64,000 bases of DNA from a virus: positions 16,186 through 80,185 of IMG/VR virus record IMGVR_UViG_3300009514_000016. One strand, 5' to 3'. The position numbers were made by a program, and so were the translations under genes. Below the pieces are notes generated by a model. That model saw only the letters and a program-made list of their open reading frames with translations. It did not search any database and was not told where the DNA came from. Below are positions 1,710 through 64,000 of the stretch, piece after piece; positions within the stretch are counted from its first letter, which is position 1; each line of letters begins with the position of its first letter.

Positions 1710-2654
1710 ATGAACAACTGGCCAAATAACTGGTATAGTCAATTCAATAAAATAGCTCAATCTCGTGGTGCTTTGCAAGACATAATCGATGTGCAGAATA
1801 TATTTATTGATTCATTTGCTGAAACCGGGAAAATTGATCAAAAACTGCAGCAATCTATCGTTGATCCTGTTGTTGAAAATTCTGTGCGCGAATTGAGCGC
1901 ATCAGTGTCTCAATGGATAGATGATGTTCTGTCTCAAACAAATCAGTGGACGCGCGGAGATCAGAGAGATTTGTCTGTATCAGACTTGAATGTCACTTTA
2001 GAGCATAGTTGGGCGAATGCTATGAGAGAATCAAATACTTTTTATATAAATTTTTCATCTCCAATAACTAATAAAAATAGAGATTCATTATTGCGGATTA
2101 GCGAGATGACTCCCCCAGGAATGGTGGAAGGATATTCCAGCAGAGAATCGATTAGGACATATGATTTTGTAGAATTCAATATCAGAATACTTATAAAAAG
2201 CATATTGACAAGCATGATGTCTGAATCAATTAACGTATCTGGCAAGGGCGTCTATAGCGCATACGAAAAGTTTCTTGAGAAATGGATCATTCCGAATGTG
2301 AGCACAGAATATTATCCGCCAAATCCAAATAAACCCGGAGAAAAGATGCGCCCACATGGTCAACAAACTCATTTGTGGCATTTGGTTCATAAGCAGTTTC
2401 TTCCATCAAAAATATGGGATCTGATAGAAAAATACGGATTCAACATGACAGTCAGAGGAGATCATTCTTCCCTGTCATATAAAAGCCAGAGAACTAAAGC
2501 GCCATACAGATACGATCCAAGAAAAGGCACAACTGATTTCATTAAATTTCCAAGCATGGCAAATAAATGGGCGGAAAATAAAATGATAACAGACAATGAT
2601 AAAGTGAAGCTCATTAGTTTTATTCAGGAGGCAATGGATATCAAAGATGAGTAA
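1710..2654 (+). CDS. Hypothetical protein with N-terminal NWY tag (putative internal head protein)
   Basis: Starts MNNWPNNWYSQFNKIAQ; weak similarity to 3380 and 62567 ORFs. Confidence 0.75.
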   Translation: MNNWPNNWYSQFNKIAQSRGALQDIIDVQNIFIDSFAETGKIDQKLQQSIVDPVVENSVRELSASVSQWIDDVLSQTNQWTRGDQRDLSVSDLNVTLEHSWANAMRESNTFYINFSSPITNKNRDSLLRISEMTPPGMVEGYSSRESIRTYDFVEFNIRILIKSILTSMMSESINVSGKGVYSAYEKFLEKWIIPNVSTEYYPPNPNKPGEKMRPHGQQTHLWHLVHKQFLPSKIWDLIEKYGFNMTVRGDHSSLSYKSQRTKAPYRYDPRKGTTDFIKFPSMANKWAENKMITDNDKVKLISFIQEAMDIKDE

Positions 2655-3378
2655 CTGGTACAACATATTTAATCACAAAATGGCTCAAAACACTTCTTCA
2701 TACCCATATGAGAAAAATCCATTTAGCCTATCCAAAAGAGAAGTGGAACAACTCATGCATGACGCCAACAGAGATGTCGCTGATAAAGTCGCTGTCAACT
2801 CTGTGGGATCTCTATCTGAAAGAGATCTGGGATCCATAATGCAAGGAGGCGAGGATACTGTCAATGATATGTTTGATGAATTTATAAAAATTAAAGCTTC
2901 ATGGAGCGGCGGAATCATCCAAATATATATAAAAACTCCAGATCCCGCAAAAGAAGATCATATCACCCTTTACCTTAATGATATGGGAGTCGATGACGAA
3001 ACAGAGTTAGCTAATTATCTCCATGGCGCTGTATATGGGATGATTGTTCAATTTGTGTCCGATATGCACATTCAATACTCAACCGATGATATTCAAGGGG
3101 CAATTGACGATTTCTATAGCGGTGTAAGGCCATCTGATCTATCTTCTAAGGAAACACCCGAATATGAAGCGGAAATGCCACAGGAGGCCCCACAAGAGCC
3201 TGCAAAGGCTAAAAAACCATGGTATCACGAATATCTCAAGCAAGAACTAGAACACCAAAGAATTCAAGACAAAACATTTGAAGAAAAACTCATAGAAGAG
3301 ACTAAAGGAGACAAATTAGAGCAACAATTGCGGGAGTGGGAAGCTAAGGGATATATTTCAAGAAGACCTAGACGATAA
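2647..3378 (+). CDS. Hypothetical acidic protein with N-terminal NWY tag
   Basis: Starts MSNWYNIFNHKMAQ; overlaps the upstream stop. Confidence 0.75.
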   Translation: MSNWYNIFNHKMAQNTSSYPYEKNPFSLSKREVEQLMHDANRDVADKVAVNSVGSLSERDLGSIMQGGEDTVNDMFDEFIKIKASWSGGIIQIYIKTPDPAKEDHITLYLNDMGVDDETELANYLHGAVYGMIVQFVSDMHIQYSTDDIQGAIDDFYSGVRPSDLSSKETPEYEAEMPQEAPQEPAKAKKPWYHEYLKQELEHQRIQDKTFEEKLIEETKGDKLEQQLREWEAKGYISRRPRR

Positions 3379-3379
3379 A

Positions 3380-4357
3380 ATGAATAACTGGTATCTCAAA
3401 TTCATCAAACTGGCGCAAGAAGAAAAGTCTCCAACATGGCAAGATGAATTCGCTGATATTAAAGATCGTTTCAGCGTCGCTCACGATATGATGGCAGAAA
3501 AAGGCCACCAAACCTTTCAAGACCCCATGGTCACTGATCTTACAAATATTGATTATATATCAGAACAATTCTTAAATCAACACACTAGCGAAATTTTAGA
3601 CAAAATAGAAACACTAAAAAGAAGTTACCAAAACCAAACAAATATCAATGATGAACCACAAGAAATGCCAGATGCTTGGATTGGACCCTATCACGAAGAA
3701 GAAATAACATATCCAGAAGCCAGAGGAAGATTAATGTTTAATTTGCCGCTAATGAATTACAACATAAGCATCAATATGGATATGTATATTGACGAACACC
3801 CATCAACATTTGCTTGGAATCCTAATAATTCATATTTTTCACTTGCAGCAGATTTCACTTCAGAACCAGTTTTATCTAAGAAAGCATTCGAAGGAGAACG
3901 CGGAGGAAGCTCAATAGTTCATATCCCATACACCTTAGCTAATGAAAAATATATAAAGCCATACCTGAAAAATCTAATAAATGGATCAGTTCATAGCTAC
4001 ATCAATCGAAATAGCAACGCACTTCAAGATATGCTCCAATCAAAAGCACCTGATCAACATATCGGAAACCTAAATAAAAACAACCAAATGCTAATGAATA
4101 TAGCATGGAAATTCAATGAAGCAAATACTAATAATTGCACTCCAGAAATTCTAGATGGACAATTAGATGGATTGCAACTGGCCGCAGAAATATGCGAACA
4201 CCCATATATCAGAAAAATCTACAATGACCACATCAATCCTGACGATAGGCGAGAATCTATCTATGTTAGCAGCCTGTGGTCTCTCCCATATTCTGTTTTT
4301 GTGCATTTAGTTCACTGGATGGAAGAATTTATCAATAAGAATTCTGGGCCATCCTAA
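3380..4357 (+). CDS. Hypothetical protein with NWY tag; paralogue of 62567..63415
   Basis: Starts MNNWYLKFIKLAQ; shares AEKGH and SLP..V..H...M...IN blocks with 62567. Confidence 0.8.
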   Translation: MNNWYLKFIKLAQEEKSPTWQDEFADIKDRFSVAHDMMAEKGHQTFQDPMVTDLTNIDYISEQFLNQHTSEILDKIETLKRSYQNQTNINDEPQEMPDAWIGPYHEEEITYPEARGRLMFNLPLMNYNISINMDMYIDEHPSTFAWNPNNSYFSLAADFTSEPVLSKKAFEGERGGSSIVHIPYTLANEKYIKPYLKNLINGSVHSYINRNSNALQDMLQSKAPDQHIGNLNKNNQMLMNIAWKFNEANTNNCTPEILDGQLDGLQLAAEICEHPYIRKIYNDHINPDDRRESIYVSSLWSLPYSVFVHLVHWMEEFINKNSGPS

Positions 4358-9410: not shown

Positions 9411-10274
9411 TTAGGAACCAGATGTCACGCTGACTTTTGCCAGAGCATAGTCATTGATGATTACTATGCCCACTTCTTCATAAATTATCCAGCCAAGGCG
9501 AAGCTCTTTAGGGTTATCTGCTGGTAGAACGGTGATGTCCTGGCGAACCGGGAAGGCACCGACGTATTCGGCTGGAGCGAGCAGGAATACTTCGTCGGTT
9601 CTCATACGAGAAGAGACGTGAATATCTGCTGTCCAGAGGTGTCCGAATAAACCAGAGGTTAGAACCTCTCTCTGGGTTGCTTCATCGTAAACGGTTTTTC
9701 CGAAGTTACGAACGTCAGCATAGCGTGAAGCATGCATAACGATCTTAGCAACGGTTAGGTCGTGTTGCTCGATGAAAGCGAAAGCGCTGTTTAGGGCGGC
9801 TAGGGTTAGAGCGCCACCAGTTGTGGTGACAGTGTGATCAGCAAGAATGGAGCTTCTGATTGCGGCGAAGATGTTTGTATCTTCTTCCTTTTGAATAGCT
9901 TCTTTTGCTTTGATCTGAGCGCGGTCTACAATGTAGAATCTACGAGCTTTGATCTCGGAAATTCTGATTTGTGGGTTGACAGCGATCTCGAAAGTTGGGA
10001 CAAGGATTTCCTCGCCCTCGGTGATTTCGTCTGGCACAGCGCCTCTACGGGAGATGACGTGAGCGACTGAACGAACGTCTTTTTCGTAGCGAGCTAGGGC
10101 TCCTTGTGGTAGTTCGTCAACCATGAGAAGTTTACGACCTACAGCCTGATACTCAAGTGCTCTACGAATTGGTTCAACCATTGCCTGGGCAAGGGCTACA
10201 CGTCCTTCGTCTGTTTCAAGAGCTTGAGCGATAAGAGCTTCGCGTTCTGCTACTGCTGATTTATCTAAAGCCAT
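9411..10274 (-). CDS. Major capsid protein (HK97 fold, encapsulin-like size)
   Basis: GRVALAQAMVEPIRRALEYQAVGRKLLMVDELPQG N-terminus typical of large-phage MCPs; C-terminal GWIIYEEVGIVIIN; strong AAGGA SD; follows protease/scaffold and precedes a terminator. Confidence 0.85.
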   Translation of the reverse strand: MALDKSAVAEREALIAQALETDEGRVALAQAMVEPIRRALEYQAVGRKLLMVDELPQGALARYEKDVRSVAHVISRRGAVPDEITEGEEILVPTFEIAVNPQIRISEIKARRFYIVDRAQIKAKEAIQKEEDTNIFAAIRSSILADHTVTTTGGALTLAALNSAFAFIEQHDLTVAKIVMHASRYADVRNFGKTVYDEATQREVLTSGLFGHLWTADIHVSSRMRTDEVFLLAPAEYVGAFPVRQDITVLPADNPKELRLGWIIYEEVGIVIINDYALAKVSVTSGS

Positions 10275-10950: not shown

Positions 10951-13900
10951 CTACTTTTCGTCAGATTCAAACATTTTGTTCTTTTTGTTTAGGCTCATGA
11001 GATTCATGAGTTTCTGAGCTAGATCTTCTGTTTCAGACTCTTTCGAGGCTGTTCTAGTAATTAGAGGAATTTCTAGTCCAGGGTTTTCCTTGCTTGCTGT
11101 CTTGGTGAGTCTATTGGAAGCAGCTTTTCTAACGGTTGCCTCATATTTTTGAATTAGAGGAACGGCTTGCTCTGATAGATCTGCAACAAGTGTTTCGTAT
11201 TCGTCTGCTTCGACTAGTCCATCTCTTAGAAGTGAGGCTGCAGTTTTGCAGGCTTCTTTATATCTTGCTGTTGCAACCTTAGTCTCATTGACTTCTTTTT
11301 CGGCTTTAGCAGCTTTAGCAGAGAGTGATTTTACCTTGTCAGACTCTTTATTGTCTTTGCTGGAAGAAACCTTTACAACTGTACGTTTCTTGCAGGACTT
11401 GCAGGTAATAGCATTGTTTCCAGATGCTACTACTTTATCGTGTCCGCATTGCGGGCAGGATGCGAGAACGGTTCCTTTGATTCTGGTGTCTCCACCTTCA
11501 AGTTCTTCGTTCCCCAGGTTTCCGCTTCCAGCCGGAATATTCGGGCCGTCTTTCGGAACAGAAGTTTCGTTACCTATTCTTGCGCCATCCCCCTTAGAAG
11601 GAATTTCTGGGGCTTTCTTGGTAGCAGGCTCTTCTTTGCCTAAAGTTTTTCCAGTTGATGGAACATCAACTTCTGATTCGTTGATATGATCAACTTTATC
11701 GAGTTTCTTTTCTTTTGGAGTTGATTCCTTTATTTTTTCTGCTTTTGGCAGTTCTTGCTGAGCAAACTTTTCATTAATTGCTTTCTGAGTGCTATCAGCC
11801 AGGGTTGTTCCCTTGATGTCGTAATCTCCTCCGTCTAGTTCTTCGTTTCCTAGTTGTTGATTTTTGACAGGAACTTCTGGTTTTTCAACTCCGAAGTTTT
11901 CTTCTTTGCCCATGGTTGCTTTTCCGCCTTTGTCTGGAACATCTGGTCCCTTCTTATCGACGTGTTCTTCTTTGCCCATGGTTTTTCCGTCATGTGTTTT
12001 GCCTAGATCCTTGACTTCTTCAACAGCGATTGGCTCTTTGAGTTGTTTATTCTTTGGAGATTCGCTTTTGACTGGTTTTGGTTCTACGCTATCAACAACA
12101 TCTGCGTTTTTCTGCAGGTGTCCGCCTTTGAGTGCTAGAGTTTCCATGGCCTCATCTTCTTCGACCATGTCTTCATCAGCAAGTTCTTCTGTCATATCTT
12201 CAACAGCATCTTCTTCTTTCATATCCTCTAGTTCTTCCTCGGCATCTTCGTGGAATTCTTCGAGTGAGCTTTCTAGTTGGTCTTCGACTTCATCTAGAAC
12301 GTTCTTTAGGGCTTCGGCGTCTTCTTCATCAAGAGTGATTGTAACAGAGCCTTCGCCTTTATCTCCCTCTTCGAATTCATAGCCTTCGTTGGCGATGTCG
12401 AATTCAGATTCTGTTTCGGCTGGAACTTCTTTTTCTTCTGGTTCAGTGTTGAAATCATAGTCAAATGCTAGGACCATGTTTTCTGCTTCTAGTTCGTCTT
12501 GTTCTGCGTATTCAGCTTTGATTGCTTCGCATGTTGCGCAAGCAGCTTTTTTGCTTAGACCTTCGGCCATTCTTTCGGCAACGCATTGTTTCATTGGGTC
12601 GGCTTCAGCTAGTTTAGAAGCGACTTTCATGAATAGTCCAGCAGTTACTTGCTTGCTGGCTTTCTTTTCCCATTGTGAAAGCATTTTGCAAACTGATTCA
12701 GCGAGTGGCTTGCCTTCAAATGGACCTGATAGACATACGGCGTTTTCACCATATCTGCGGCTCATTTTTTCGAGGCAAGTTTCAACTGGGAATTTGCGAT
12801 CAGCCATGTATGAGGCAACTAGTTGTTTGTGTGATTTTTTTGTTGCGGCGGAAATTATTTTGCCTTTTGGACCTTTTGGATCTGTTTCATCTTTGAATAC
12901 AACTGGAACCCATGTTAGGTGGGCAATAAGTTTCTTAGAATCTTTTGGATGTGCAACAATGTCAACTTTGTAGTTTTGCGAGCATGCAGAGCATGATCCG
13001 ATGTTGTTATCCATTGCGACTTTAGATGAATTGCAGTTCGGGCAGAAAGATCCGAATGATGCTTTTCCAGCAGTTTTTGTTGCTTTATCTGGAGAAATAA
13101 CCATTGAAAGTCTGATTGGAAGAGCAATTTTCTTAGAAGCGGCTAGTCCAACTGGCTCTTCCAGTTTTAGTCCGCCTTCTTCTTCTTCGCCTTCGCCGCC
13201 TTTGCTATCCTCGATAGTTCCTGGCCATTTGTGGACATCAATATTGACAGAGATTTTGAATTCTGCTCCGCAGGAGTTACATTCTCCTTCTCCGTTCATG
13301 ATGTCAACGTCGTCAGAGGCGCATGCTGGGCATGTTGAGCCTGGTGGTTGAGCTTCGCCTTCAGATTCTGTTTCTGCGGCAAGATCTTCTTCCATTTTTG
13401 GCTCTGCTTCTGGTGGAGTGGCAAGTGTTTCAGCACCAAGTCCGCCCATATCGGTTGGACCAGCAGCCAGATCGCCTCCGGCTGGAGCGGCAGTCATCTG
13501 ATCTGGAGTTCCGCCTCCAATTTGAGCAATTAGCTTGCGTCTTTTTTCCGCTCTTGCTTTCAAGAAATCTTCTTTTGATTCAGCTTTCTCTTTTGCGGCA
13601 GTTTTCTTTGTGGCCTTAGAGAATGCGACATGAACTTCTTTTGCTTTTTTGTCGACTTCTACGCCGGTTGCCTCAACAACTTCGAATCCGTTCTCAGCAG
13701 CAATTTCAACTGCTCTTGCGATAACAGATTCTTTATCATCGATTTTGGCATCGCCTAGATCATCGAATTTAATGTGAACATTTGCTGTCTCGTCGCTTGC
13801 GACTTTTGTTTCTTCTTCAGCGGAAGCTTCGGTTGTTTCTTCTTCCTCGGTTGAGTCTTCAGTTTCTTCAACTTCTTCTTCTTTTTCGGCTTCTTTTGTT

Positions 13901-16236
13901 TCTTCTTTGGCATCCATAGCAAGCAGTGTTGCTTCAAGATCGCTGCCGATTGTTGGGATTGAATCCTCTTCTTCAGCTTGCTTGACAAATTCTTCTGCCA
14001 TAGTGGTGATTTTGCCAGTTGAAACATTTGGGTGTTTGGCTAGAACAGCAATTCCTTCCATGATTAGTTCAGAAGGAACATCTTCATCAGTGATGGATGC
14101 AGCAATGTTCTTGCCTAGTTCTTTTTCAGAAGACTTTGCACTAGCGACTTTAACTCTGGTTTCTCCAGACTGGATGCTCTTGACCAAATCTGCAGTTCCT
14201 GATTGCCAAGATGGAGACACGATCTTGCTTGCAATGCTTAGAACTCTCTCTGGTTGAGCGCCAGTGCGGGCGACGACTCTAGCTAGAGCGCTGATGGAGG
14301 CTTTGATAACTTCATCAGATTTCTTAGCGAATCGTTTGCCAAGTGGTTGATCTTGTGAGTAAAGTTGTTTCTCGGTAATATCGTCTGTTGGAGACCATCT
14401 GCTATCTTTGGATTTCCACTCGTCAAGCTGAGCTTCCATGGTCTTTTCTAGTTGATCTTTTTGATACCATGAACCATTAGACGGAGCAGAGTTGCCTTTC
14501 CATGACTCATCTCTTAGCTGTTCGTCAGTGATGTCGAGACGTGGTTCGTCCTGTCTTGTATGATTTGCGATGTATCCTTCAGCGACAGAGGCATTTTTTC
14601 CTGGCTTATCCTTGTCTAGCTGATCTTCTGTAATTGTTTCAATAGATTTATTCCAACGAGGATGAGAAGTTGTTCCAACTCCTTTGCCGTCCAGCTGAGC
14701 TTCTGTTGTCTCTTCTGGGTATCCTTTTCTGCTATGGATGGCATTACCGTTGTGCTCTTCAAGCTGCTTTTCGGTAATGTCTTGGCGAGGCTCTTTCTCA
14801 CCTTCCCATTTGGTTTTTGCTTCTTTTATATCTTTAGCCACTGTTTTGTCTCCTGTGCTAGATGTAAGGATTTCTTTAGAAATTTCCTCAGTATGGGATG
14901 CCATAAGATCTTTCAACAAACTCTTAAGGACTGCTTCCTTTTCATCTGTCATAGCTTTTCTGATATTATTATCTTCAAAGTCGTCTATATTCAGACTTTT
15001 TATAACAGAATCCTTGTAATATCCGAAATAACTATTTCCATCGGCTACTACTTTATAATCTCCAGAGCTAGCTTCCAATTTTGAGCCAGACTCTTTTTTA
15101 TTGCCTTTTCCGGCAAATTGGTTTTTTATTGTTTGCAGTTGTTCTACAACTTGCGATATTTTTTCCATTGCTTTTTCGCGCTCGGCAGCAACCGGCATTC
15201 CAGTTATTGATCCAACGCCTCCGGCTGGAGCGGCTTCTGGAGAAACTTCTGGTTCTGCTGAGGCTTCTGGGGCTTCTTCTGGAAGACCTGCTGGACCATC
15301 TGGCCCTTCTGCTCCTTCTGGACCTTCGCCGCCAACTTGAGAGTAACCCATTTCAACCAAAGTATCAGTTGTTTCCTGAAGATCACCAAGAACCTTGATA
15401 AGATCAGTTAGATAATCCATGTCAACGATATGGCGCTGATCCAGCATGGCGCGGCAAACATCTTCAATGTCTTTTAGAGCGGCTTGCAATTTGTCAACTT
15501 CAGCTTTTCCGCCAGTTTTGATAGATCCAGCTGATACTATTTTTTTGATTTTGCCAACAGCAGATGCGGCTTTGGTCATATACTCTTCATTATCAATAAT
15601 GTCTTGAATTGTGCAATCTTCGCAAGCGCCATCGGTTACGCAAGAAAGTTCAATGAATTTAATGCCATAGTTTTCTTCGTAAACTTTCTTGCCGTTTACG
15701 GTGCGTCCTTTATGATTTTGAACGCACTTGCAATAATCTTCAGCGGTAACAGCTTTATTGCGGCAAACTGAGCAAACGGAATGCTCAACTTGGCATCCCA
15801 TTGAAACGTCAGTAATATAACCTTGCTCGATTCCTCTGCAAAGCTGCGGATAAGCTTGACGATCAATGAACATGACAGTATAAACTGATTTATCATCTTC
15901 TGACCATTCAGCAGAAACGACCTTGCCTTTGGCGGTTTCAATCTTATCGTTTTCATGATTCGTAAAAACTGGAACACCAACAAATGAACGGTAAGACTTT
16001 TTCAATTCCTCAGTTGAGAAATAATCTCCGTTATCGTTTGGCTCATCGGCAACGATTGCCTTGACTTTGATAAACAAGGCGTCAGGGTGCTTTTCGATGG
16101 CTTCTCTAATATTCTTTTCATTTTCTGTTCTATCTTTTTCTGCGTCAATAAGGATAGAGGCAGTTTTCACTGTCTTATCTTTCTTTGCAGTATCTATAAT
16201 AGAAACAATTTTATGAGTTGCTGTTTTTATAAGCAT
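10951..16236 (-). CDS. Prohead (capsid maturation) protease fused to a giant scaffold with Zn fingers and repeats
   Basis: N-terminal domain with NDNGDYF..EEL...Y.SFVG.PVF.NH, VSMGC...CSVC and E.N.GI.FIELS.V..GA motifs of phage serine prohead proteases, followed by a long acidic region with CxxC pairs; located upstream of the MCP. Confidence 0.8.
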   Translation of the reverse strand: MLIKTATHKIVSIIDTAKKDKTVKTASILIDAEKDRTENEKNIREAIEKHPDALFIKVKAIVADEPNDNGDYFSTEELKKSYRSFVGVPVFTNHENDKIETAKGKVVSAEWSEDDKSVYTVMFIDRQAYPQLCRGIEQGYITDVSMGCQVEHSVCSVCRNKAVTAEDYCKCVQNHKGRTVNGKKVYEENYGIKFIELSCVTDGACEDCTIQDIIDNEEYMTKAASAVGKIKKIVSAGSIKTGGKAEVDKLQAALKDIEDVCRAMLDQRHIVDMDYLTDLIKVLGDLQETTDTLVEMGYSQVGGEGPEGAEGPDGPAGLPEEAPEASAEPEVSPEAAPAGGVGSITGMPVAAEREKAMEKISQVVEQLQTIKNQFAGKGNKKESGSKLEASSGDYKVVADGNSYFGYYKDSVIKSLNIDDFEDNNIRKAMTDEKEAVLKSLLKDLMASHTEEISKEILTSSTGDKTVAKDIKEAKTKWEGEKEPRQDITEKQLEEHNGNAIHSRKGYPEETTEAQLDGKGVGTTSHPRWNKSIETITEDQLDKDKPGKNASVAEGYIANHTRQDEPRLDITDEQLRDESWKGNSAPSNGSWYQKDQLEKTMEAQLDEWKSKDSRWSPTDDITEKQLYSQDQPLGKRFAKKSDEVIKASISALARVVARTGAQPERVLSIASKIVSPSWQSGTADLVKSIQSGETRVKVASAKSSEKELGKNIAASITDEDVPSELIMEGIAVLAKHPNVSTGKITTMAEEFVKQAEEEDSIPTIGSDLEATLLAMDAKEETKEAEKEEEVEETEDSTEEEETTEASAEEETKVASDETANVHIKFDDLGDAKIDDKESVIARAVEIAAENGFEVVEATGVEVDKKAKEVHVAFSKATKKTAAKEKAESKEDFLKARAEKRRKLIAQIGGGTPDQMTAAPAGGDLAAGPTDMGGLGAETLATPPEAEPKMEEDLAAETESEGEAQPPGSTCPACASDDVDIMNGEGECNSCGAEFKISVNIDVHKWPGTIEDSKGGEGEEEEGGLKLEEPVGLAASKKIALPIRLSMVISPDKATKTAGKASFGSFCPNCNSSKVAMDNNIGSCSACSQNYKVDIVAHPKDSKKLIAHLTWVPVVFKDETDPKGPKGKIISAATKKSHKQLVASYMADRKFPVETCLEKMSRRYGENAVCLSGPFEGKPLAESVCKMLSQWEKKASKQVTAGLFMKVASKLAEADPMKQCVAERMAEGLSKKAACATCEAIKAEYAEQDELEAENMVLAFDYDFNTEPEEKEVPAETESEFDIANEGYEFEEGDKGEGSVTITLDEEDAEALKNVLDEVEDQLESSLEEFHEDAEEELEDMKEEDAVEDMTEELADEDMVEEDEAMETLALKGGHLQKNADVVDSVEPKPVKSESPKNKQLKEPIAVEEVKDLGKTHDGKTMGKEEHVDKKGPDVPDKGGKATMGKEENFGVEKPEVPVKNQQLGNEELDGGDYDIKGTTLADSTQKAINEKFAQQELPKAEKIKESTPKEKKLDKVDHINESEVDVPSTGKTLGKEEPATKKAPEIPSKGDGARIGNETSVPKDGPNIPAGSGNLGNEELEGGDTRIKGTVLASCPQCGHDKVVASGNNAITCKSCKKRTVVKVSSSKDNKESDKVKSLSAKAAKAEKEVNETKVATARYKEACKTAASLLRDGLVEADEYETLVADLSEQAVPLIQKYEATVRKAASNRLTKTASKENPGLEIPLITRTASKESETEDLAQKLMNLMSLNKKNKMFESDEK

Positions 16237-22674: not shown

Positions 22675-24327
22675 CTATTGCTGTTGTTCCTGATCAGGAA
22701 ATTCATGTTCTACATCTTCATCCGCGCCAGTTTCATGAAGAAATTCTTCTTCATCTTCATAGTGTTCTGGAACATACTTGGCGAAATGGGTTATGGCCTC
22801 ATCCTCTGAATCATGGAAGTGCATCTTGCCAGCAACGACTGATCTCCATACGCCATCTTTGTAAAATACTCCACCGTCTAGTGAAGCTGATTTTCCTGGA
22901 TACTCTACAAAATCTTCGACTCTCTCTTCAACTGAATCGTCTTCATTTTCTTCAAATTCATCTCCAATGCCAATTGGGCCATTGGATTCTGGAAGATCAA
23001 TGTCTTCTGTTATTGGCATTTGATCCATTAGCTTTTGAACATCTGCCATATCAACCATGTCCGCTGGAGTGTCCGTCTGAATGGCTTGCAAAGTTTCATG
23101 AGTAACATCAAACTCTGGGGAAGAAGTCATAATCTGCATTGGGTGAACCCCTTGTATCCATGCTTCATCGTGAGTCATAGCGCCTAATTCATCGAGATTG
23201 TATCCCTGAGCGGCCATGAAATCGCCATAGCTCGCCATGTCTTGACTAATTTGCTCTTGAGCAACTGCTTGTGCTTTCTTGACCAGCCCGTTAGATGCAC
23301 TAACTTCTGGATTCAAGAACACTTGTTTCATTGCAGAGATGATTTTTCCGGCTGTTTTAATTTCTTTCTTACCAGAGCCAACAACCTTTTTGTCTGGTTC
23401 TGGTGCGCCGCCAAGATATTCTCTTTCTTCTGAAAGTTTATCTCTCATGTTGGAAAGGCGTTTCTCGTAGCTCCACTCATCTGGGCTAATTGGTCTGCGT
23501 CTCTGTCCTGGCTTTAGCTGATAAGAGTTTCCTGCGGTGTCATAATGAACTTCAAATCTCTTATTAAAATACCCGCCAACATAGTTCCCATCTTTGTCGC
23601 GATATTCTCTTGAGAATTTGTCAATAACATTTTGTCTGAAAAGAGTTTCAGCACAAATAATACGGTAATCATCTAGGGCAAGTCCATCTAAGCAGTGCCA
23701 GCGGCAAACATAATCAGAAATGACATTGCGAATCTTGGGACACCAGCGTTTTTCATCTGGTCCATTTAGGATATATGGTTCGCTCATACGAACTGCTGTT
23801 TTAGTGAATTTCTTTAAGTTAAACGCTTTCATTGGTTCTCTTTCGTGAATATCCTCAACAACTTGTTCATATTTAGGAAGTTCTTCGGATCTTTCCTCTT
23901 TAACTTCCTCTTCAACCGCCTTCTCTGGATCTCTCGCCATATTGTTCTTTTCGAATATATTGAACAATTTTACTGCTATTTCTTTTTGGTCTTCTTTTGC
24001 ATCTGGATGCTCTGACTCCCCCAATGCGATATAGGCGTCAATTAGCTCATCTGTGCTATGTTCCATAGATGGATTGGGAATCCGACTCAAGAAGTCAAAT
24101 TTGATCTCTTCTCTATTCTCGTCTTGCGCCAAGGAATCTAGCCATGTTTGAACAGAAGGGACTTCTTGACCTTGCTCATCCGTCATTGAATAACCGACAG
24201 CAGATTGAAAGAGCGGAGGATTTTGAACCCAGTCCTGAGAACCGAATTCCCCTTGTTGATCCTGCGGACCATCAAGGGGAGATTCAGAAATTTGTGCTAG
24301 TTTATAAGCTTTTTTGTTGAATCCCAT
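22675..24327 (-). CDS. Putative internal head protein (acidic, central Cys/His cluster)
   Basis: Probable start MGFNKKAYKLAQ; internal MKAFNLKKFTKTA; WCPK...CRWHC...C cluster. Confidence 0.7.
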   Translation of the reverse strand: MGFNKKAYKLAQISESPLDGPQDQQGEFGSQDWVQNPPLFQSAVGYSMTDEQGQEVPSVQTWLDSLAQDENREEIKFDFLSRIPNPSMEHSTDELIDAYIALGESEHPDAKEDQKEIAVKLFNIFEKNNMARDPEKAVEEEVKEERSEELPKYEQVVEDIHEREPMKAFNLKKFTKTAVRMSEPYILNGPDEKRWCPKIRNVISDYVCRWHCLDGLALDDYRIICAETLFRQNVIDKFSREYRDKDGNYVGGYFNKRFEVHYDTAGNSYQLKPGQRRRPISPDEWSYEKRLSNMRDKLSEEREYLGGAPEPDKKVVGSGKKEIKTAGKIISAMKQVFLNPEVSASNGLVKKAQAVAQEQISQDMASYGDFMAAQGYNLDELGAMTHDEAWIQGVHPMQIMTSSPEFDVTHETLQAIQTDTPADMVDMADVQKLMDQMPITEDIDLPESNGPIGIGDEFEENEDDSVEERVEDFVEYPGKSASLDGGVFYKDGVWRSVVAGKMHFHDSEDEAITHFAKYVPEHYEDEEEFLHETGADEDVEHEFPDQEQQQ

Positions 24328-24328
24328 C

Positions 24329-25345
24329 TTACTCCTCTTCGGATTCAGATGGTTCATTTCTTGTTGTATCAGTGAAAAGCTTAGAAAGAGAATCGACTAT
24401 TTCAGCTTGCTTATCTGCGGAACGGGTTCCTTTGCCGACTTTTTTCCAGCTATCATCTTTTTCCGCTTTACGGCTAATGTCAGCTTTTCTCTTTTTAGCG
24501 GCTTCAACGCTTTGCTCTTTTGTGGTTTTCTCTGATGCGAAAGCAGAGCCTTCTCCGTCAAACATGCTGATTTGGTCTTTTCCGACTCCAACGTAAGACT
24601 GAGAAACTGCTGGCTCTGATGCTGCGGTCTGAACAGTGTGAGACTGAACTAGATCCAAGCCCTCTCTTAGAGAAGCAAGCATAATTTCCTGACGCTCAGT
24701 TTCCATTTCTTTGATTGAGTTCTTTCTGGCTTCAACAGACTTTTGAATTCTTTCTTTGTTGTCGTCTAATTCCATTGACTCGACTTGAACATCAAAATCT
24801 TCAAACATGCTAAACTGGCCCGGAGCAACTCTGTGTGATCCGCCGAAGTTAGTCTCTGTCTGAGAGCCCGAGTAACGAACCTCTCTCTCCAAGCTGGTTG
24901 ATTCAACCTTGAATCCACTATCGCCAAGTTTCTTAGCAACTTTGGTTGTGATTTTTTTCACAGAAGCCTCAATGTCGTCGTCATCTTCCATTTCGATGTC
25001 TTCTTCTGTTTCTTCTGATTCTATCTCCTCCAGCTCTTCATCGGTTGGTTCATCGTCTTCCTCCTCTTCGTCGTATCCATATCCAGCAACGATAAGAGTT
25101 TTTATTGCTTGAGAGCTAGATTCTGTGAATTTAATTCCAAGATTAGCCATTGCCTCAACAGCGGCTTCAGGAGATTCAGTGCTCTCTTTGTAATAAGAAA
25201 GCATGTCGTCATCTAGACCTTGAGCGGCCAAATCTGCTGGAATTTCTTTAATTTCTTCAACAGGAGAAAATGATTCTTCTACTGTTTGAGCTTCTTTCCG
25301 AGCAAACCATTCTAGATTGTTTTGATCTTTAGTTTTGCGCAACAT
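24329..25345 (-). CDS. Acidic putative head protein
   Basis: Very D/E-rich; LEWFARKEAQ and KVA motifs; repeated Q[FI]SMF[ED] motif. Confidence 0.7.
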   Translation of the reverse strand: MLRKTKDQNNLEWFARKEAQTVEESFSPVEEIKEIPADLAAQGLDDDMLSYYKESTESPEAAVEAMANLGIKFTESSSQAIKTLIVAGYGYDEEEEDDEPTDEELEEIESEETEEDIEMEDDDDIEASVKKITTKVAKKLGDSGFKVESTSLEREVRYSGSQTETNFGGSHRVAPGQFSMFEDFDVQVESMELDDNKERIQKSVEARKNSIKEMETERQEIMLASLREGLDLVQSHTVQTAASEPAVSQSYVGVGKDQISMFDGEGSAFASEKTTKEQSVEAAKKRKADISRKAEKDDSWKKVGKGTRSADKQAEIVDSLSKLFTDTTRNEPSESEEE

Positions 25346-25864: not shown

Positions 25865-26677
25865 TTAGTAGTCTTGGACTAGCGCCTTAGCATATTCTTT
25901 TGGATAGTAGAGCCCGAAATAATTTTGCAACCATTTCTTGTCTTTATCCGTTAGCTTGGCAACAGTTGTGAACTTGCCTTTGAATCCAGCGTAAAGAGGA
26001 TCGCTAATGACAACAACTTCTCCGGTTCCTTCGTCCATTCTCTCTCCTGGAACAGACTTTTCAGACCCTTCTTCGTCAACGCAACCGCAAACGCATTTTT
26101 CGTCTTCGCATTTGCATTCTATTGACTCATGTGAAGCGCATCCCATTTTGGCACAATCCATGCAAAAATAGCATTCGTCATCTTCATCTTCGGCAGAGAA
26201 TTCCATTTCGACTGTCTCTTCTGGCTCTGGGATAGATGCGCATTTGTGTTCTAGAGCTTCTTCCTCGCCGCATGAATCGCAAGTAGATGCTTCTGTAATT
26301 TCTTCTTCTGGAGCCTCTTCGGATTTTTCTTGAGCAACTTTTGGATAAGTTGACTTGACGGCAGCGTAAATTGACGCCTTTAGTTCTTCAAGAGTTCCAT
26401 CAAACCATTTTGGAACTTCCTTGTACTCAGCCATTCTGATGAGAGCATCAGTTGCCTGCTTGGCATTGTTAATTGGATAGTGATGCTTTCCGTCTTTGAC
26501 TTTTGGATTACTGGAAGCAAAAACAACTTTTTCTTTTGAAGATTCAGCTTTCTTTTCTTCTTTGCTGGCTTCTTTTGTTAGTTTTTCTGAAGATGCGATC
26601 TTCTTTTGCTTGGCCACCCAGTCAGTCCAACTGGATTTGCTTGAGTCGCCTTTAATTTTATTGCTGAATAGTTTCAT
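25865..26677 (-). CDS. Putative head protein with Cys-rich region
   Basis: Start MKLFSNK with AGGAG SD; HHYPINNAKQATDALIR helical module; Cys-rich acidic stretch; KKIAS and KEAS motifs. Confidence 0.7.
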   Translation of the reverse strand: MKLFSNKIKGDSSKSSWTDWVAKQKKIASSEKLTKEASKEEKKAESSKEKVVFASSNPKVKDGKHHYPINNAKQATDALIRMAEYKEVPKWFDGTLEELKASIYAAVKSTYPKVAQEKSEEAPEEEITEASTCDSCGEEEALEHKCASIPEPEETVEMEFSAEDEDDECYFCMDCAKMGCASHESIECKCEDEKCVCGCVDEEGSEKSVPGERMDEGTGEVVVISDPLYAGFKGKFTTVAKLTDKDKKWLQNYFGLYYPKEYAKALVQDY

Positions 26678-33826: not shown

Positions 33827-34291
33827 CTATTGTTTTGCTTTCCATTTTTTGGCTAGAGTTGCCATTCCGATGTCCGAAATTCTTTCTATTTGATGTTCCG
33901 GGCCAAGTTCAATCATATTTTTGTTATGCAAAGAATTCAAGGCTTGCTGATTGATGTTTTGTATTCCGCGTCTCTTTCCGCTGCTGATATGCTTTGATAT
34001 TTCGAGAAGCATTCTAAATTCTTCATCATTTAAAATTGGAGCTTGCTCTTCATCTTCTGCGCCCATTTCTGGAAAACGCCATGCTGTTTTGACAGAGAAT
34101 CTTCCATACCAGTTGTTGGCACTGATCTTCTTTTTTATCTTTTGCAGATTTTTGGTTTCCAAAATATAACGTGAGTTAGAATTGCTTTCAATGACAATGG
34201 CTTTATCTCCCATAAGCATCTGGACTTTTCCAGTTCTTTTGGTTCCGCCATCATTCCATTCTACTGTATTAGTTGCGAATATTTTAGCCAT
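33827..34291 (-). CDS. Hypothetical protein with internal NWY tag
   Basis: Internal KKISANNWYGRFSVKTAW between an N-terminal beta domain and a C-terminal wHTH-like domain. Confidence 0.65.
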   Translation of the reverse strand: MAKIFATNTVEWNDGGTKRTGKVQMLMGDKAIVIESNSNSRYILETKNLQKIKKKISANNWYGRFSVKTAWRFPEMGAEDEEQAPILNDEEFRMLLEISKHISSGKRRGIQNINQQALNSLHNKNMIELGPEHQIERISDIGMATLAKKWKAKQ

Positions 34292-37927: not shown

Positions 37928-38713
37928 TTATTTTCCAAGCGACTTAGCGGCGACTTTCTTTATAGCGTCTGCCGTCATATCTTGGCCGGTAGAAAATGTT
38001 TTCACAACAACATCATTTTTCATAATATCAAAAACATCTTTTCCTGATTCTGAGTGGGAAAAACATATTTTGTAAGTCCCAAGATGATATGTCTCATTAT
38101 TAGACTTCTTTTTCTTATTCTTTTTATAATTCTTGAAATCGGGGTGGTGACCATGTTCCTCATACCATTTGCGCCACATTTCTGGCTTATTGATCATCAT
38201 CCAATATTCTTGTTTTGCCGACTCAAATGGGGCTTGTTTCATCAATTTGGATGTTACAGTTTTATTGCTGGATTCTGCCATCCCTCCCAATCCTCCTCCT
38301 GGTTGTTGCGGCTGAGGAATTAATGGGATACTGTCGAGAATATCTGTTACTTCTTTATGGTATTTTTCGATGTTTTCTAAAATTCTATCAACTATCTGAT
38401 TAAGAGCCTTATGATAATTGTCATCCAAATACTCAAATAGATTCGTCTCATTATCCCATGGGTTAATATGGGACTGAATATAATCTAAAATCATATCTCG
38501 ATCAATCCCCAAGCCTTCTTCTTGATCAGAGTGTTTATTGGCTCTTTTATCGCGAATCAGATCAAGCACAATTCTTTTGCCCATAGTGTCAATTTTTGAC
38601 GGATCTTTAACCAGATCTTTGACTATTCTCTCGTATCCGAGAGCAATAGCATCATCAGTATGATCTATCGTTTTTTCTTTTGGTTCTTTTTGCGATATTC
38701 TATACCAATTCAT
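37928..38713 (-). CDS. NWY-tagged hypothetical protein downstream of terminase
   Basis: Probable start MNWYRISQ at 38713. Confidence 0.7.
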   Translation of the reverse strand: MNWYRISQKEPKEKTIDHTDDAIALGYERIVKDLVKDPSKIDTMGKRIVLDLIRDKRANKHSDQEEGLGIDRDMILDYIQSHINPWDNETNLFEYLDDNYHKALNQIVDRILENIEKYHKEVTDILDSIPLIPQPQQPGGGLGGMAESSNKTVTSKLMKQAPFESAKQEYWMMINKPEMWRKWYEEHGHHPDFKNYKKNKKKKSNNETYHLGTYKICFSHSESGKDVFDIMKNDVVVKTFSTGQDMTADAIKKVAAKSLGK

Positions 38714-58263: not shown

Positions 58264-58386
58264 GTTAGATCTCCTAAAAGTATGCATTCCATTATACATG
58301 ATCATTGTGTTTGTTCCTAATTCCGCCCAAAAATAAAGCAAATCAAATAAACAGGAAATTTATAATCCAAAAAGAAATAATCCCTT

Positions 58387-60144: not shown

Positions 60145-60146
60145 CT

Positions 60147-62566: not shown

Positions 62567-63415
62567 ATGAACTGGATCCATAGATTCAAAGCTGCCCAAA
62601 TAACTCCGCATATGCAGGATTTCCATGATATTCTAGCTGTGGCAGCCGATATATTAGCCGAAAAAGGCCATACTGAATATGAATCCCAAGATATAACAGA
62701 TTTAATAAATAGTATAGAACCAATTGTGCGCCAAATAGTTGAACCACAAATAGCCAACCTAGAACAAGAAGTGCGAGACACGCTAAATAACCCTCCTCCT
62801 CGACCAGAAGAAGAAATACATCCAAATCAAATGCCTTCATATGAACCGCTGAAAGTAAAAGATATTGATATAGATAAAAATGTATCCATAGAAGTCTATG
62901 TAGAAAATAGTATCATGCCTGAACCAGATATTAGATTCGAATTAGACGGAGAATCATCTTTTTTGTATCTTCCATACAATGAAGAATTAGGATTAATAGA
63001 GCCATTCTCTGAAGATACAAAAAACAAAATATTCTCCCATATATTCTATCTAATAAAATACCATATCAATATGAATAGCGATACAATAAGTCAATTGCTG
63101 CAACGAAAAGATATGTACCCAGAAACTTATACTACAAATCAGGGGCTCCAAAAACTAATAGGAGAATTCAACCACCGAATCATACGCAATAGACGATCTA
63201 CTAGATCGCCATATAATAGACTTCTGTACCTAAAAGATGAATATCTAATAAATGTGCTAGAAAAATATGTCCCTGATAAAGTCGGCACAATTAGAAGCGG
63301 ACCATTTGATGGGATAAAAAATATAACCTATGAAGGAATAATGAGTCTACCTCAACCTGTGCTAATACATGTAATAAACTATATGAAAGACAAGATTAAT
63401 GGAAGTAAACAATGA
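62567..63415 (+). CDS. NW-tagged protein, paralogue of 3380..4357
   Basis: MNWIHRFKAAQ; AEKGH; GIMSLPQPVLIHVINYM. Confidence 0.78.
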   Translation: MNWIHRFKAAQITPHMQDFHDILAVAADILAEKGHTEYESQDITDLINSIEPIVRQIVEPQIANLEQEVRDTLNNPPPRPEEEIHPNQMPSYEPLKVKDIDIDKNVSIEVYVENSIMPEPDIRFELDGESSFLYLPYNEELGLIEPFSEDTKNKIFSHIFYLIKYHINMNSDTISQLLQRKDMYPETYTTNQGLQKLIGEFNHRIIRNRRSTRSPYNRLLYLKDEYLINVLEKYVPDKVGTIRSGPFDGIKNITYEGIMSLPQPVLIHVINYMKDKINGSKQ

Positions 63416-63714
63416 ACTGGTTAGATAAACTATACAATCAAATACGCAATAAACCTACACAAGAAGTAGATGACACCACAAAAGCAATGAGACAACAACG
63501 CAAAGCAGAGTTCTATGAGGCTTTGCCTAATGTCCCAGAAGAACATCGTGAAAAACTTGAAAAACTATTCAATGATACAGTAATGCGTGAATCTGGAGTG
63601 AATTGCCGATGCACGGGAGAAATGCTCCCTCTTGTAAAAATAACAGGATATGAATTAGGAATCAAACACCCAAAAGATCCAAATCCATTCTATTATGCAA
63701 TAGAGAGACAATAA
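63412..63714 (+). CDS. Small protein with NW-type N-terminus
   Basis: MNWLDKLYNQ; ATGA-type overlap with the upstream gene. Confidence 0.6.
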   Translation: MNWLDKLYNQIRNKPTQEVDDTTKAMRQQRKAEFYEALPNVPEEHREKLEKLFNDTVMRESGVNCRCTGEMLPLVKITGYELGIKHPKDPNPFYYAIERQ

Positions 63715-63720
63715 ATAAAA

Positions 63721-64000
63721 ATGAATAATTGGTATCTTAAATTCAATAAAACAGGCCAAAATTCTAATCCTTACAATCACCCTGATAACCAGGATTTCAC
63801 AGAAATAGATTCTGCTGGATGTAAGATTTGGAGAAATTCTGCAGGAAAAATCCACAGGGATGGCGACAAACCTGCCTATATTTATCCTGATGGATCAGCA
63901 TTTTATTACAAAGAAGATAAGCTTCACAGAGAAGGAGATAAGCCTGCTGTAATTTGGCCCAATGGAACAGTAGAGTATTTCAAAAACAATAAGCTTCACA
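63721..64000 (+). CDS. NWY-tagged HRDGDKPA-repeat protein (partial, runs off the window; absent from the ORF track)
   Basis: Manual translation: MNNWYLKFNKTGQNSNPYNHPDNQDFTEIDSAGCKIWRNSAGKIHRDGDKPAYIYPDGSAFYYKEDKLHREGDKPAVIWPNG... Confidence 0.85.
   Translation, partial: MNNWYLKFNKTGQNSNPYNHPDNQDFTEIDSAGCKIWRNSAGKIHRDGDKPAYIYPDGSAFYYKEDKLHREGDKPAVIWPNGTVEYFKNNKLH

Follow-up and report, generated by a model that had tools for sequence, protein, structure and literature searches.

Prohead proteases of the lineage that includes T4 gp21 and the herpesvirus assemblins become active in the assembled prohead, as in the HK97, T4 and herpesvirus systems, and the herpesvirus members cleave after Ala, before Ser. 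Encapsulin cargo peptides are usually C-terminal with a G-S-L-type consensus, remain uncleaved and need neither protease nor scaffold. Polyvalent proteins, encoded by phages and conjugative elements, were reportedly brought to attention by Iyer, Aravind and colleagues in 2017. A described counterpart of the peptide considered here is that of phage T4, where gp21, the prohead protease, removes the capsid-targeting sequence (CTS) of the internal proteins IPI-III and Alt (Mullaney & Black 1996, as cited in PMC10052503). N-terminal propeptides of head and ejection proteins in phiKZ and SPN3US are cut by gp175 or gp245 at A-X-E (PMC10052503, PMC7411985), and in staphylococcal phage 80alpha L27-like N-terminal leaders on capsid and scaffold proteins are removed by host Prp (PMC5744158).

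Nine tagged starts

The window, the whole 64,000-nucleotide stretch of viral DNA analysed, encodes M(N)NW[YIL]..K-x-[ASG]-Q at nine ATG starts where ~0.08 would be expected (P~1e-18), seven on the + strand (1710, 2647, 3380, 58387, 62567, 63412 and 63721) and two on the - strand (38713 and 51094, with the genes running to 37928 and 49856). All nine N-terminal sites listed in an earlier sequence-only reading, which gave no strand for the two on the - strand, were located, as was the internal copy it had pointed out (Table 1); the 63412 product, counted there as a member, does start with MNW but is a weak case. Ten of the 92 genes of the whole 80-kb contig start M.?NW, against 10 NW dipeptides in the remaining ~24,400 residues (binomial P~1e-18), the tenth such gene being outside the window and without K-x-A-Q.

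Similarity among the nine proteins stops after K-x-[ASG]-Q, just where divergence had been claimed to set in. In an all-against-all BLASTP with the leaders trimmed the sole related pair is 3380 and 62567 (24% identity, E 3e-6), so that their description as unrelated holds for eight of nine lineages and fails for this pair. Eight of the nine window cargo proteins have no recognisable function, and the 3380 product is an orphan in a collection of 5.8 billion proteins. The residues following the tag are polar or acidic, and nowhere in the first 60 residues of any of the nine is there a Sec, Tat or lipoprotein-type hydrophobic core (maximum 19-residue Kyte-Doolittle mean <0.7); a Sec/Tat or membrane signal was rejected on this ground. 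Synonymous codons differ between the copies and the DNA upstream is without conservation, which places the selection at the level of the tag peptide.

Table 1. Tagged genes, head-module genes and related features of the window
Feature	Position	Strand	Details
Tagged cargo gene, 314 aa	1710..2654	+	Tag MNNWPNNWYSQFNKIAQ (1710-1760), NNW duplicated; no match in Pfam and PHROG searches
Tagged cargo gene, 243 aa	2647..3378	+	Tag MSNWYNIFNHKMAQ (2647-2688)
Tagged cargo gene, 325 aa	3380..4357	+	Tag MNNWYLKFIKLAQ (3380-3418); distant paralogue of 62567 gene
Major capsid protein (MCP; HK97 type, no delta domain)	9411..10274	-	Pfam Phage_capsid, weak
Prohead protease (~residues 50-210) fused to long acidic scaffold-like region, 1761 aa	10951..16236	-	PHROG 18299, 6e-16
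Head-module protein p560	22675..24357	-	N-terminal leader (M)GFNKKAYKLAQ, without NWY
Head-module protein p270	25865..26677	-	Five K-x-A-[STQ] sites
Head-module protein p649	26786..28735	-	N-terminal MPKFNKRKHITLAQ; internal N-K-K-A-Q-Y-V-G (27182-27205)
Internal tag-like copy	34079..34120	-	ANNWYGRFSVKTAW, residues 58-71 of 154-aa ORF 33827-34291
Tagged cargo gene, 261 aa	37928..38713	-	Tag MNWYRISQ (38690-38713), canonical clade form
Tagged tRNA nucleotidyltransferase (CCA-adding type), 412 aa	49856..51094	-	Tag MNNWYHKFAQ (51065-51094); Pfam PolyA_pol 1.5e-15, PHROG 2244 8.6e-32
Tagged cargo gene, 200 aa	58387..58989	+	Tag MNNWYNKFHKISQ (58387-58425)
Tagged cargo gene, 282 aa	62567..63415	+	Tag MNWIHRFKAAQ (62567-62599); paralogue of 3380 gene
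Weak member, 100 aa	63412..63714	+	N-terminus MNWLDKLYNQ, without K-x-A
Tagged cargo gene, truncated by contig end	63721..64000	+	Tag MNNWYLKFNKTGQ (63721-63759)

A clade-wide tag of viruses

The leader MNNWYxKFxKxAQ of the sequence-only reading is real in the window, but only as a local variant: it is a lengthened private form, NWY-x-[KQI]-F-x-K-x-[ASG]-Q, of an eight-residue tag, M-N-W-[YF]-[KR]-x-[AS]-Q, present on ~140 distinct proteins in ~35 IMG/VR contigs that are relatives of Bacillus phage G. In a pattern search, MNWYKx[AS]Q matches 55 stretches in ~35 IMG/VR contigs. The information content of the clade tag drops to background at residue 9, and the window's form looks like the clade cargo head (MNWY) fused to a leader of the F-N-x-K-K-[AS]-Q type seen in p560. 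A literature description of an MNWYK tag was not found, and the lengthened form is new.

The tag is restricted to viruses. In 596 Gb of prokaryote contigs MNWYKx[AS]Q has 28 matches versus ~35 expected by chance, and only three of the 28 are true tag arrays, all on small MAG contigs. Both synonymous codons are in use across the clade (N2 66:70, Y4 105:19, K5 92:23, Q8 62:8), with the tag codons being somewhat A-rich and AAC, GCA and CAA over-used; substitutions are conservative in the protein (Y/F, K/R, A/S) yet disrupt the DNA motif.

Tagged families in relatives include kinases, GNAT acetyltransferases, ADP-ribosyltransferases, RNA-repair enzymes of the 2H and RNA-ligase types, an anti-Thoeris protein and HTH proteins, and also glucose-6-phosphate dehydrogenase (G6PD) and aldo/keto reductase (AKR). 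The known cargo families, RNA-repair, counter-defence and DNA-binding proteins, overlap the 'polyvalent' co-injected domain set (ART-PolyVal, 2H-SAK, PcfJ, cREC_REC and Tad6). The MCP or the protease-scaffold was found in every near-complete tag-bearing genome tested; among alternatives in complete tag-bearing genomes, the trypsin-like p435 is present in 0/5, phage ClpP in 1/5 and phage GroEL in 1/5.

The CCA enzyme gives a view of the tag's second half in two architectures. Its orthologue in a relative, G005, with ~20 MNW[YF]-type starts in 122 kb, is likewise tagged, and in the tagged stand-alone forms K-x-[AS]-Q (KFAQ, KVSQ) is ~15 residues upstream of the CCA-enzyme domain. In polyprotein orthologues of 890-910 aa the position aligned with the tag reads I-K-T-A-Q, again ~15 residues before the domain, and in tagged and polyprotein forms alike the K-x-A motif marks the edge of the CCA-enzyme domain on its N-terminal side.

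The protease-scaffold and the head module

The sequence-only reading had placed a protease at 10951..16236, and the protein there has an N-terminal prohead protease domain, identified by its PHROG match, by 49% identity to phage G gp19 and by fold matches. The top Foldseek matches of the protease-domain model are 5JBL (probability 0.96; T4 gp21) and herpesvirus proteases, the model having a pLDDT of 58.8 and the matches being weak (E 0.07). Profile match, gp19 identity and modelled fold together place the domain in the T4 gp21/herpesvirus assemblin lineage. The scaffold-like region has three CxxC...CxxC modules.

K-x-A-[S/T/Q], which forms the tag's second half, shows a 4-8 fold enrichment in this protein and in every one of the 15 orthologues tested. 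The window's copy has 12 sites versus 3.2 expected, a number reached in 0/300 shuffles, and the orthologous scaffolds (15/15) have 7-17 versus ~2, always at least the maximum of 200 shuffles. Among the 12 are L-I-K-T-A-T (residues 2-7) and a clade-invariant V/I-K-T-A-S (residues 23-27); 17 orthologues keep both the K and the A of I-K-T-A-S without exception, ~25 residues ahead of the protease domain.

Enrichment of the motif extends to p560, p270 and p247. Orthologues of p560 begin M.FN[LF]KK[AS]Q or MKKAQ; the internal site of p649 coincides exactly with the start of a C-terminal domain conserved in relatives, and its orthologues have [IV]-K-x-A-Q-Y exactly at the onset of conservation; at the homologous site of p270 orthologues K-T-A-S and K-T-A-Q interchange. 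The MCP, better conserved than any other protein of the clade (69-84% identity to relatives), has an N-terminus that is variable until ..L-I-A-Q and conserved afterwards, a site that is uncertain because phage G has I-S-K at the I-A-Q position. With the motif most concentrated in the protease-scaffold and neighbouring head-module proteins, here and in relatives, the proposed tie between the leader's K-x-A and this protease gains in substance. The NWY half is limited to cargo and absent from head-protein leaders.

In phage G the architecture recurs, but with another address peptide. Its own tag form, M-[KS]-R-L-[IKM]-K-K-[AS] (in summary M-K-R-L-I-K-K-[AS]), also new, is on ~18 ORFs, six of them head-module genes, and K-x-A-[STQ] is enriched in only 2/546 ORFs, both in the head module. 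The form of the tag co-varies with the head-module leaders by lineage, across the window, the marine clade and phage G. With this tag form, and with a protease that shares 49% identity with the window's, phage G allows the idea set out below to be tested in culture.

A proposed address-and-cut tag

We give an even chance to the leader being a two-part, virus-encoded address-and-cut tag that would act in packaging and cleavage as does the T4 CTS. The first part, M-N-(N)-W-Y, on cargo only, would attach a newly made protein to the prohead core during assembly, the candidate receptors being the fusion of protease and scaffold or the HK97-type capsid protein on its inner face. The second part, hydrophobic-hydrophobic-K-x-[A/S]-[Q/S/T], would be what the phage's own prohead protease recognises; copies of this motif are scattered across the scaffold and head several head-module proteins. 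After assembly the protease may strip the 7-16-residue leader and dismantle the scaffold, and the freed cargo inside the head, in the window putatively the CCA-adding enzyme and seven proteins of no assigned function, would pass into the next host alongside the DNA at ejection.

Several observations count against this. K-x-A-[STQ] is not depleted in cargo bodies (16 observed vs 16.8 expected), although depletion might be anticipated in neighbours of an active protease, unless folding shields their domains, as it may; G6PD and aldo/keto reductase are not obvious injected effectors; some relatives have many tagged genes, G005 being the example; and there are the low confidence of the protease model, the I-S-K of the phage G MCP and the want of a recognisable function in eight of the nine window cargo proteins. 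Also counting for it is the genomic setting: GTATAAT-type promoters precede 11 other operons and no tagged operon, and one tagged gene, 37928..38713, starts 5 nt past the end of the large terminase gene, and so is probably in the same operon.

Alternative explanations

A tag serving processing only, as a removable propeptide for inactivity or timing that is cut in the cytoplasm by the prohead or another protease with no packaging involved, would draw equally on the evidence for K-x-A-[STQ] as a processing motif, and the metabolic cargo (G6PD, AKR) would suit a cytoplasmic role better. It is nevertheless improbable, given that HK97, T4 and herpesvirus-lineage prohead proteases are activated inside the assembled prohead, that seven residues capping the N-terminus can hardly be expected to keep dozens of unrelated folds inactive, and that the cargo-specific NWY half, missing from head proteins, is left unexplained.

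We hold it to be unlikely, to a similar degree, that the tag docks its carriers onto a hub other than the capsid (a replication factory, chaperone, ribosome or membrane complex) with the resemblance to the head motif being incidental. A short, amphipathic peptide on enzymes of RNA and DNA metabolism would fit such a role, and there is a precedent in T4, where, as cited in PMC10052503, an N-terminal peptide of a head protein targets proteins to GroEL; the window's phage encodes GroEL and GroES. However, phage GroEL is in only one of the five complete tag-bearing genomes, the want of a hydrophobic segment in the nine window proteins goes against a membrane or Sec/Tat signal, and the K-x-A-Q half is common to head-module leaders, with which the tag form co-varies by lineage.

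An N-terminal degron limiting protein lifetime through an AAA+ protease is very unlikely. N-W-Y-K-[I/F/L] appears to match the loose ClpX N-motif-1 pattern, which is said to go back to Flynn et al. in 2003 (lambda-O type: polar-hydrophobic-hydrophobic-basic-hydrophobic), and 21 other proteins of the same contig have a C-terminal tail. Phage G, moreover, encodes ClpXP (PMC12484599). Yet position 6 of the clade tag is mostly K, Q or R, not hydrophobic, and the head-module enrichment is left unexplained. A ClpX N-terminal degron was rejected on protease co-occurrence, phage ClpP being in one of five complete tag-bearing genomes, and on cellular substrates, where the chance-level occurrence of the tag speaks against mimicry of a commonly used host degron class, though host ClpXP may play a part.

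A nucleic-acid element, in which the 5' codons would be a translation-initiation or promoter-like signal resembling an extended -10 box (TGG-TAT-AAA/T), is already disfavoured and scarcely credible, for although the W-Y-K/N codons read TGGTATAAA/T, the copy at 58397 was found by a GTATAAT search and the tag codons are A-rich, both synonymous codons occur at N2, Y4, K5 and Q8, protein-conservative changes break the DNA motif and the upstream DNA is unconserved.

Comparison with known systems

To judge from sequence, the address-and-cut tag would be an analogue of the T4 CTS, not a homologue. In both, a short N-terminal peptide is common to unrelated proteins (here nine in the window, with one paralogous pair, and ~140 in relatives); the T4 peptide ends in a prohead-protease cleavage motif frequent in scaffold and core, and here the recurrence of the motif is seen and its cleavage predicted; a prohead protease of gp21/assemblin fold is encoded (PHROG 18299, phage G gp19 and Foldseek with a low-confidence model); and the cargo includes an ADP-ribosyltransferase-type enzyme. 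Sequence similarity is lacking, with K-x-A-[S/Q/T] here and L/I-x-E in T4, and the consensus M-N-W-[YF]-[KR]-x-[AS]-Q has no terminal Glu. The protease here is fused to a giant scaffold, the clade is a different one (phage G relatives), and there are dozens of cargo families versus a handful.

With phiKZ and SPN3US there would be in common a giant-phage head with many non-structural proteins (predicted here), one short consensus in many substrates and a protease that cuts itself, but their propeptides are mostly of 20-254 residues with no shared address and the cut follows Glu, whereas here there is a near-identical 8-13-mer. The herpesvirus assemblins share the protease-fold lineage and a motif in which a small residue, Ala, has Ser, Thr or Gln after it, with the scaffold as a probable substrate here; the present motif differs in having Lys two residues before Ala in place of the herpesvirus context, at a putative scissile bond. 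In 80alpha, as is predicted here, a short N-terminal leader common to head proteins is cut at a fixed motif, there with Ala before Ser, but the 80alpha motif imitates the leader of a ribosomal protein of the host, whose own cysteine protease does the cutting, while the present tag is not on ribosomal proteins and its absence from cellular genomes beyond chance argues against host-protein mimicry of the Prp/L27 type.

Encapsulins illustrate that a short terminal peptide is all that unrelated enzymes need to enter an HK97-fold shell. The shell protein here is of HK97 type, and its conservation is as expected of a receptor for so conserved a tag; encapsulin peptides are usually C-terminal and are uncleaved, and the tag is N-terminal. 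Polyvalent proteins have domains in common with the cargo (ART-PolyVal, 2H 'Swiss army knife' phosphoesterase, PcfJ, ParB_N and SLOG), and both are proposed to be delivered along with DNA. There the domains are fused in one giant protein and here they are separate genes, each tagged; intermediates exist as well, in the form of polyproteins with internal K-x-A-Q sites.

A clade-wide N-terminal tag

The leader MNNWYxKFxKxAQ that a sequence-only reading had described is present in the window, but it is merely the local form of a tag, M-N-W-[YF]-[KR]-x-[AS]-Q, that recurs throughout a clade of phages. The 64-kb window makes up the right-hand end of a virus contig of 80,185 bp and codes for a portal, large terminase, HK97-type major capsid protein (MCP), decoration protein, GroEL/GroES and a 1761-aa protease-scaffold. 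Its portal shares 33.6% identity with the portal of Bacillus phage G and 45-59% with those of IMG/VR contigs, complete 461-548-kb genomes among them, and MCP identity to the relatives G016 and G017 is up to 84%; the window is therefore part of the genome of an uncultivated huge phage from the phage G lineage. At its C-terminus (residues 596-704) the portal is HNH-endonuclease-like (PHROG 559), and a 108-aa GroES-like gene adjoins that for GroEL (PHROG 5725, E 1e-152).

A related 122-kb fragment, G005, has ~20 ORFs with an MNW[YF] start, and the back-translated pattern MNWYKx[AS]Q was found in 55 stretches on ~35 contigs of IMG/VR; the pattern loci, G005, a further relative (G012) and this contig together supply 150 distinct motif-bearing ORFs. 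Complete related genomes each have 7-14 copies of the bare start ATG-AAY-TGG-TWY, versus 0-2 of the reversed control. Among the recovered loci, information content is maximal at M-N-W, high at [YF]-[KR], moderate at [AS]-Q and no higher than background beyond residue 8. There is a second clade variant, MNWYKxIKxA[LV]P, in which, as in the window form NWY-x-x-F-x-K-x-[ASG]-Q, the K-x-A is kept but shifted 3-5 residues downstream. Within 596 Gb of prokaryote genomes the tag pattern occurs 28 times versus ~35 expected, and only three of these matches are genuine tag arrays, all on small MAG contigs. MNWYK-tagged ORFs number four on a 19-kb Halanaerobium MAG contig (L115), three on a 3.6-kb Flavobacteriales MAG contig (L120) and one on a Patescibacteria MAG contig (L124); these contigs are probably mis-binned phage fragments, the ORFs not being host genes. 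Searching the literature for the tag strings turned up no paper on the tag.

The tag in the window

All nine N-terminal sites claimed earlier are there. An M.?NW start is carried by 10 of the 92 genes in the gene set for the whole contig, and NW occurs elsewhere just 10 times in ~24,400 residues (P~1e-18). Codon usage differs among the window copies, and no shared sequence was found in the 70 nt upstream of the tagged genes. The proteins had been called unrelated, which holds in that similarity is absent past K-x-[ASG]-Q, but those starting at 3380 and 62567 are a distant paralogous pair. The gene at 63412, in which K-x-A is missing, is a weak member. The sole window cargo with a recognisable function is a tRNA nucleotidyltransferase. 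No hydrophobic segment follows the leader in any of the tagged proteins of the window. The 325-aa cargo protein proved an orphan when compared with a 5.8-billion-protein collection, and tblastn found no match to it in phage records.

Window cargo tags end in ..F-N-K-I-A-Q, ..F-I-K-L-A-Q or ..F-N-K-T-G-Q, while the leaders of p560 and p649, two proteins of the structural block, read M-G-F-N-K-K-A-Y-K-L-A-Q and M-P-K-F-N-K-R-K-H-I-T-L-A-Q, and to judge by these residues the cargo tags resemble an NWY fused to a leader of the p560/p649 type. As a DNA pattern the long form MNNWYxKF has no match in IMG/VR and 56 in the metagenome collection, all of them chance or out of frame except for a 1.6-kb fragment (L199), so that the lengthened tag is essentially private to this contig.

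Coordinates of the features discussed (window positions unless a locus is named; the LEI-tail genes are examples)
Feature	Position	Strand	Remark
Tagged start	1710		
Tagged start	2647		
Tagged start	3380		325-aa protein
Tagged start	38713	-	
Tagged start (gene 49856-51094)	51094	-	tRNA nucleotidyltransferase
Tagged start	58387		
Tagged start	62567		
Tagged start	63412		
Tagged start	63721		
Protease-scaffold	10951-16236	-	1761 aa
Portal	19363-21495	-	
p560	22675-24357	-	
p270	25865-26677	-	
p649	26786-28735	-	
p435	34284-35591	-	435 aa
GroEL	41063-43069	-	
LEI-tail gene	4354-4902		
LEI-tail gene	4899-5378		
LEI-tail gene	5781-6449		
LEI-tail gene	43913-44248		
LEI-tail gene	52155-52955		
LEI-tail gene	54531-54929		
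LEI-tail gene	56015-56710		
LEI-tail gene	57712-58305		
LEI-tail gene	58991-60623		
CCA polyprotein of a relative	L058: 2972-5692		
CCA polyprotein of a relative	L088: 6414-9071		

The second half of the tag in head-module proteins

The protease-scaffold has 12 occurrences of K-x-A-[STQ] versus 3.2 expected, a number reached by none of 300 shuffles, and 15 orthologous scaffolds have 7-17 each versus ~2 expected. Significant enrichment extends to p560, p270 and p247, all of the structural block. An alignment of 17 protease N-termini, most of which start M-x-[FI]-x-K-x-A-[TS], shows no variation at the K and A of an I-K-T-A-S that lies ~25 residues ahead of the protease domain. In p649 orthologues conservation sets in exactly at [IV]-K-x-A-Q-Y (N-K-K-A-Q-Y-V-G at residue 511 of the window copy), orthologues of p270 alternate K-T-A-S with K-T-A-Q at one site, and those of p560 start M-x-F-N-[LF]-K-K-[AS]-Q or M-K-K-A-Q. 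Head-module proteins thus bear the tag's second half and no NWY; the NWY half is cargo-specific. Cargo bodies are not depleted of K-x-A-[STQ] (16 observed versus 16.8 expected), which is neutral to mildly negative for the model. In its scaffold part the 1761-aa protein has three modules of the CxxC...CxxC type, which are zinc-ribbon-like, and long, acidic stretches of low complexity.

The CCA-adding enzyme stands alone and tagged in the window (..K-F-A-Q) and in G005 (..K-V-S-Q). Two other relatives have the CCA domain inside 890-910-aa polyproteins, where an I-K-T-A-Q ~15 residues ahead of it aligns with the stand-alone K-x-[AS]-Q; the polyproteins have further K-V-A-[SQ] sites, with K-x-A-[SQ] flanking the CCA domain, and an internal M-[AS]-N-W-Y-[KR]-[KR] tag before the last ~100-aa domain. 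Such an arrangement is what would be expected if a protease freed the domain at K-x-A-Q.

Candidate protease and cleavage site

The placing of a prohead protease in the 1761-aa protein is borne out, its N-terminal domain matching PHROG 18299, ‘head maturation protease’, and being 49% identical to phage G gp19 over 138 residues. The top fold match of a low-confidence AlphaFold model (pLDDT 58.8) is T4 gp21 (probability 0.96, E 0.07), followed by herpesvirus proteases; a profile search found no match to the protease among PDB sequences. Conserved N-H-x-N-D, which reads N-H-E-N-D in the window protein, and S-M-G are candidate catalytic elements. Directly after S-M-G, 8 of the 17 orthologues (L003, L008, L012, L013, L014, L019, L021 and L022) have inteins carrying LAGLIDADG-type endonuclease motifs, none being present in the window's own copy, and the site of their insertion likely marks the catalytic serine. 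Herpesvirus proteases cleave after Ala and before Ser, and by that analogy the scissile bond is most likely the one between A and the following residue in K-x-A-[S/T/Q].

Another peptidase, p435, is coded within the structural block, immediately ahead of an ORF with an internal tag-like copy, and has a Trypsin_2 domain together with a weak SET-domain match. Five tag-bearing relatives have no counterpart of it, which rules it out as general tag protease. Phage ClpP and phage GroEL are ruled out as tag partners, each being present in only one of five complete relatives.

Bacillus phage G

Phage G is without MNWY and has two MNWF starts versus ~0.2 expected. It has instead M-[KS]-R-L-[IKM]-K-K-[AS] at the start of ~18 ORFs (NC_023719; loci L108 and L137-L161), several of which begin with TTG or GTG. 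This leader is on the head-module genes gp5, gp9, gp10, gp17, gp20 and gp38, where annotated starts agree with it, and no paper was found that mentions it. Further ORFs with the leader start at 39023, 73330, 81748, 147654, 207449, 245994, 254652, 258975 and 446709 of NC_023719. Two of the tagged proteins have ParB_N and SLOG domains, and one shows a weak alignment (E 1e-3) to a tagged marine protein, the alignment beginning equally far from the tag in both. Significant enrichment of K-x-A-[STQ] is confined to 2 of 546 phage G ORFs, both of the head module. Phage G particles are reported to contain 104 proteins, many of them enzymes (2025 paper, PMC12484599).

Cargo, expression and a C-terminal tail

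Pfam domains assign just a minority of 132 tagged clade proteins to families, among them AAA_33 kinases (six), GNAT acetyltransferases (four), cREC_REC (three), CCA/poly(A) polymerases and ART-PolyVal (two each), HTH proteins (several), and also Tad6, 2H-SAK, 2'-5' RNA ligase, PcfJ, DnaJ, glucose-6-phosphate dehydrogenase and aldo/keto reductase. Weak evidence points to non-early expression of the tagged genes. GTATAAT-type promoters precede 11 operons on the contig, none of them a tagged operon or head gene, and the tagged gene at 38713 begins 5 nt past the end of the terminase gene; a late-promoter motif shared by tagged and head operons was not found.

A separate C-terminal tail, [YFW]-x-x-[LIVM]-E-[IL]-COOH, mostly ..LEI, is on ~21 other proteins of the contig, many of their genes being behind GTATAAT-type promoters. 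It is a peptide and not a DNA motif, since the codons for L, E and I and the stop all vary. NWY-tagged proteins never have the tail, and G005, G012 and phage G lack it altogether; P-G-L-E-I near the C-terminus of the protease-scaffold resembles the tail.

Interpretation and comparison with known systems

The earlier interpretation, capsid targeting plus cleavage, is partly supported. We consider the chances about evenly balanced that the leader works as an address-and-cut tag in two parts and serves to load the head, packaging and cleavage being what we infer. Counting against this are that some cargo is metabolic, that the ‘I-A-Q’ of the MCP is not conserved in phage G and that the evidence for the protease fold is weak. 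Among rivals the leader could be a signal for processing only, a means of docking to another hub, or a degron. The weakest rival, an RNA- or DNA-level element, could appeal to the W-Y-K codons, which spell an extended -10-like TGGTATAAA, yet this reading, promoter look-alike included, is ruled out by codon variation: the 136 canonical tags use either synonymous codon at N2, Y4, K5 and Q8, so selection on TGGTATAAA is disfavoured. Tag replacements are conservative at the protein level (Y/F, K/R, A/S), and the 30 nt upstream have just a weak purine-rich ribosome-binding region.

Extending the address-and-cut reading, and with somewhat less confidence than an even chance, phage G-related huge phages may possess a modular packaging code, in which a cargo-only NWY address and a prohead-protease site, K-x-A, serve for loading and injecting arsenals for RNA repair and anti-defence as separate tagged genes, with lineage-specific forms. 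The marine clade would have MNWYKxAQ, this phage MNNWYxKFxKxAQ and phage G MKRLIKK[AS], a natural experiment on co-evolution of address peptide and receptor. Since phage G is cultivated, and has an orthologous protease and its own tag form, the idea is testable now. If true, the injected proteome of huge uncultivated phages could be listed from sequence alone, an 8-residue handle would be available for packaging foreign proteins in large capsids and an unstudied head-assembly system would have a defined protease motif.

Many of the recognisable tagged proteins are counter-defence and tRNA-repair enzymes, and much of the tagged cargo falls within the domain set of ‘polyvalent’ proteins, which are thought to arrive in the cell together with the DNA; the packaging code, if true, would functionally replace them. 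Though not homologous to it, the tag would in the address-and-cut reading act like the capsid-targeting sequence of T4.
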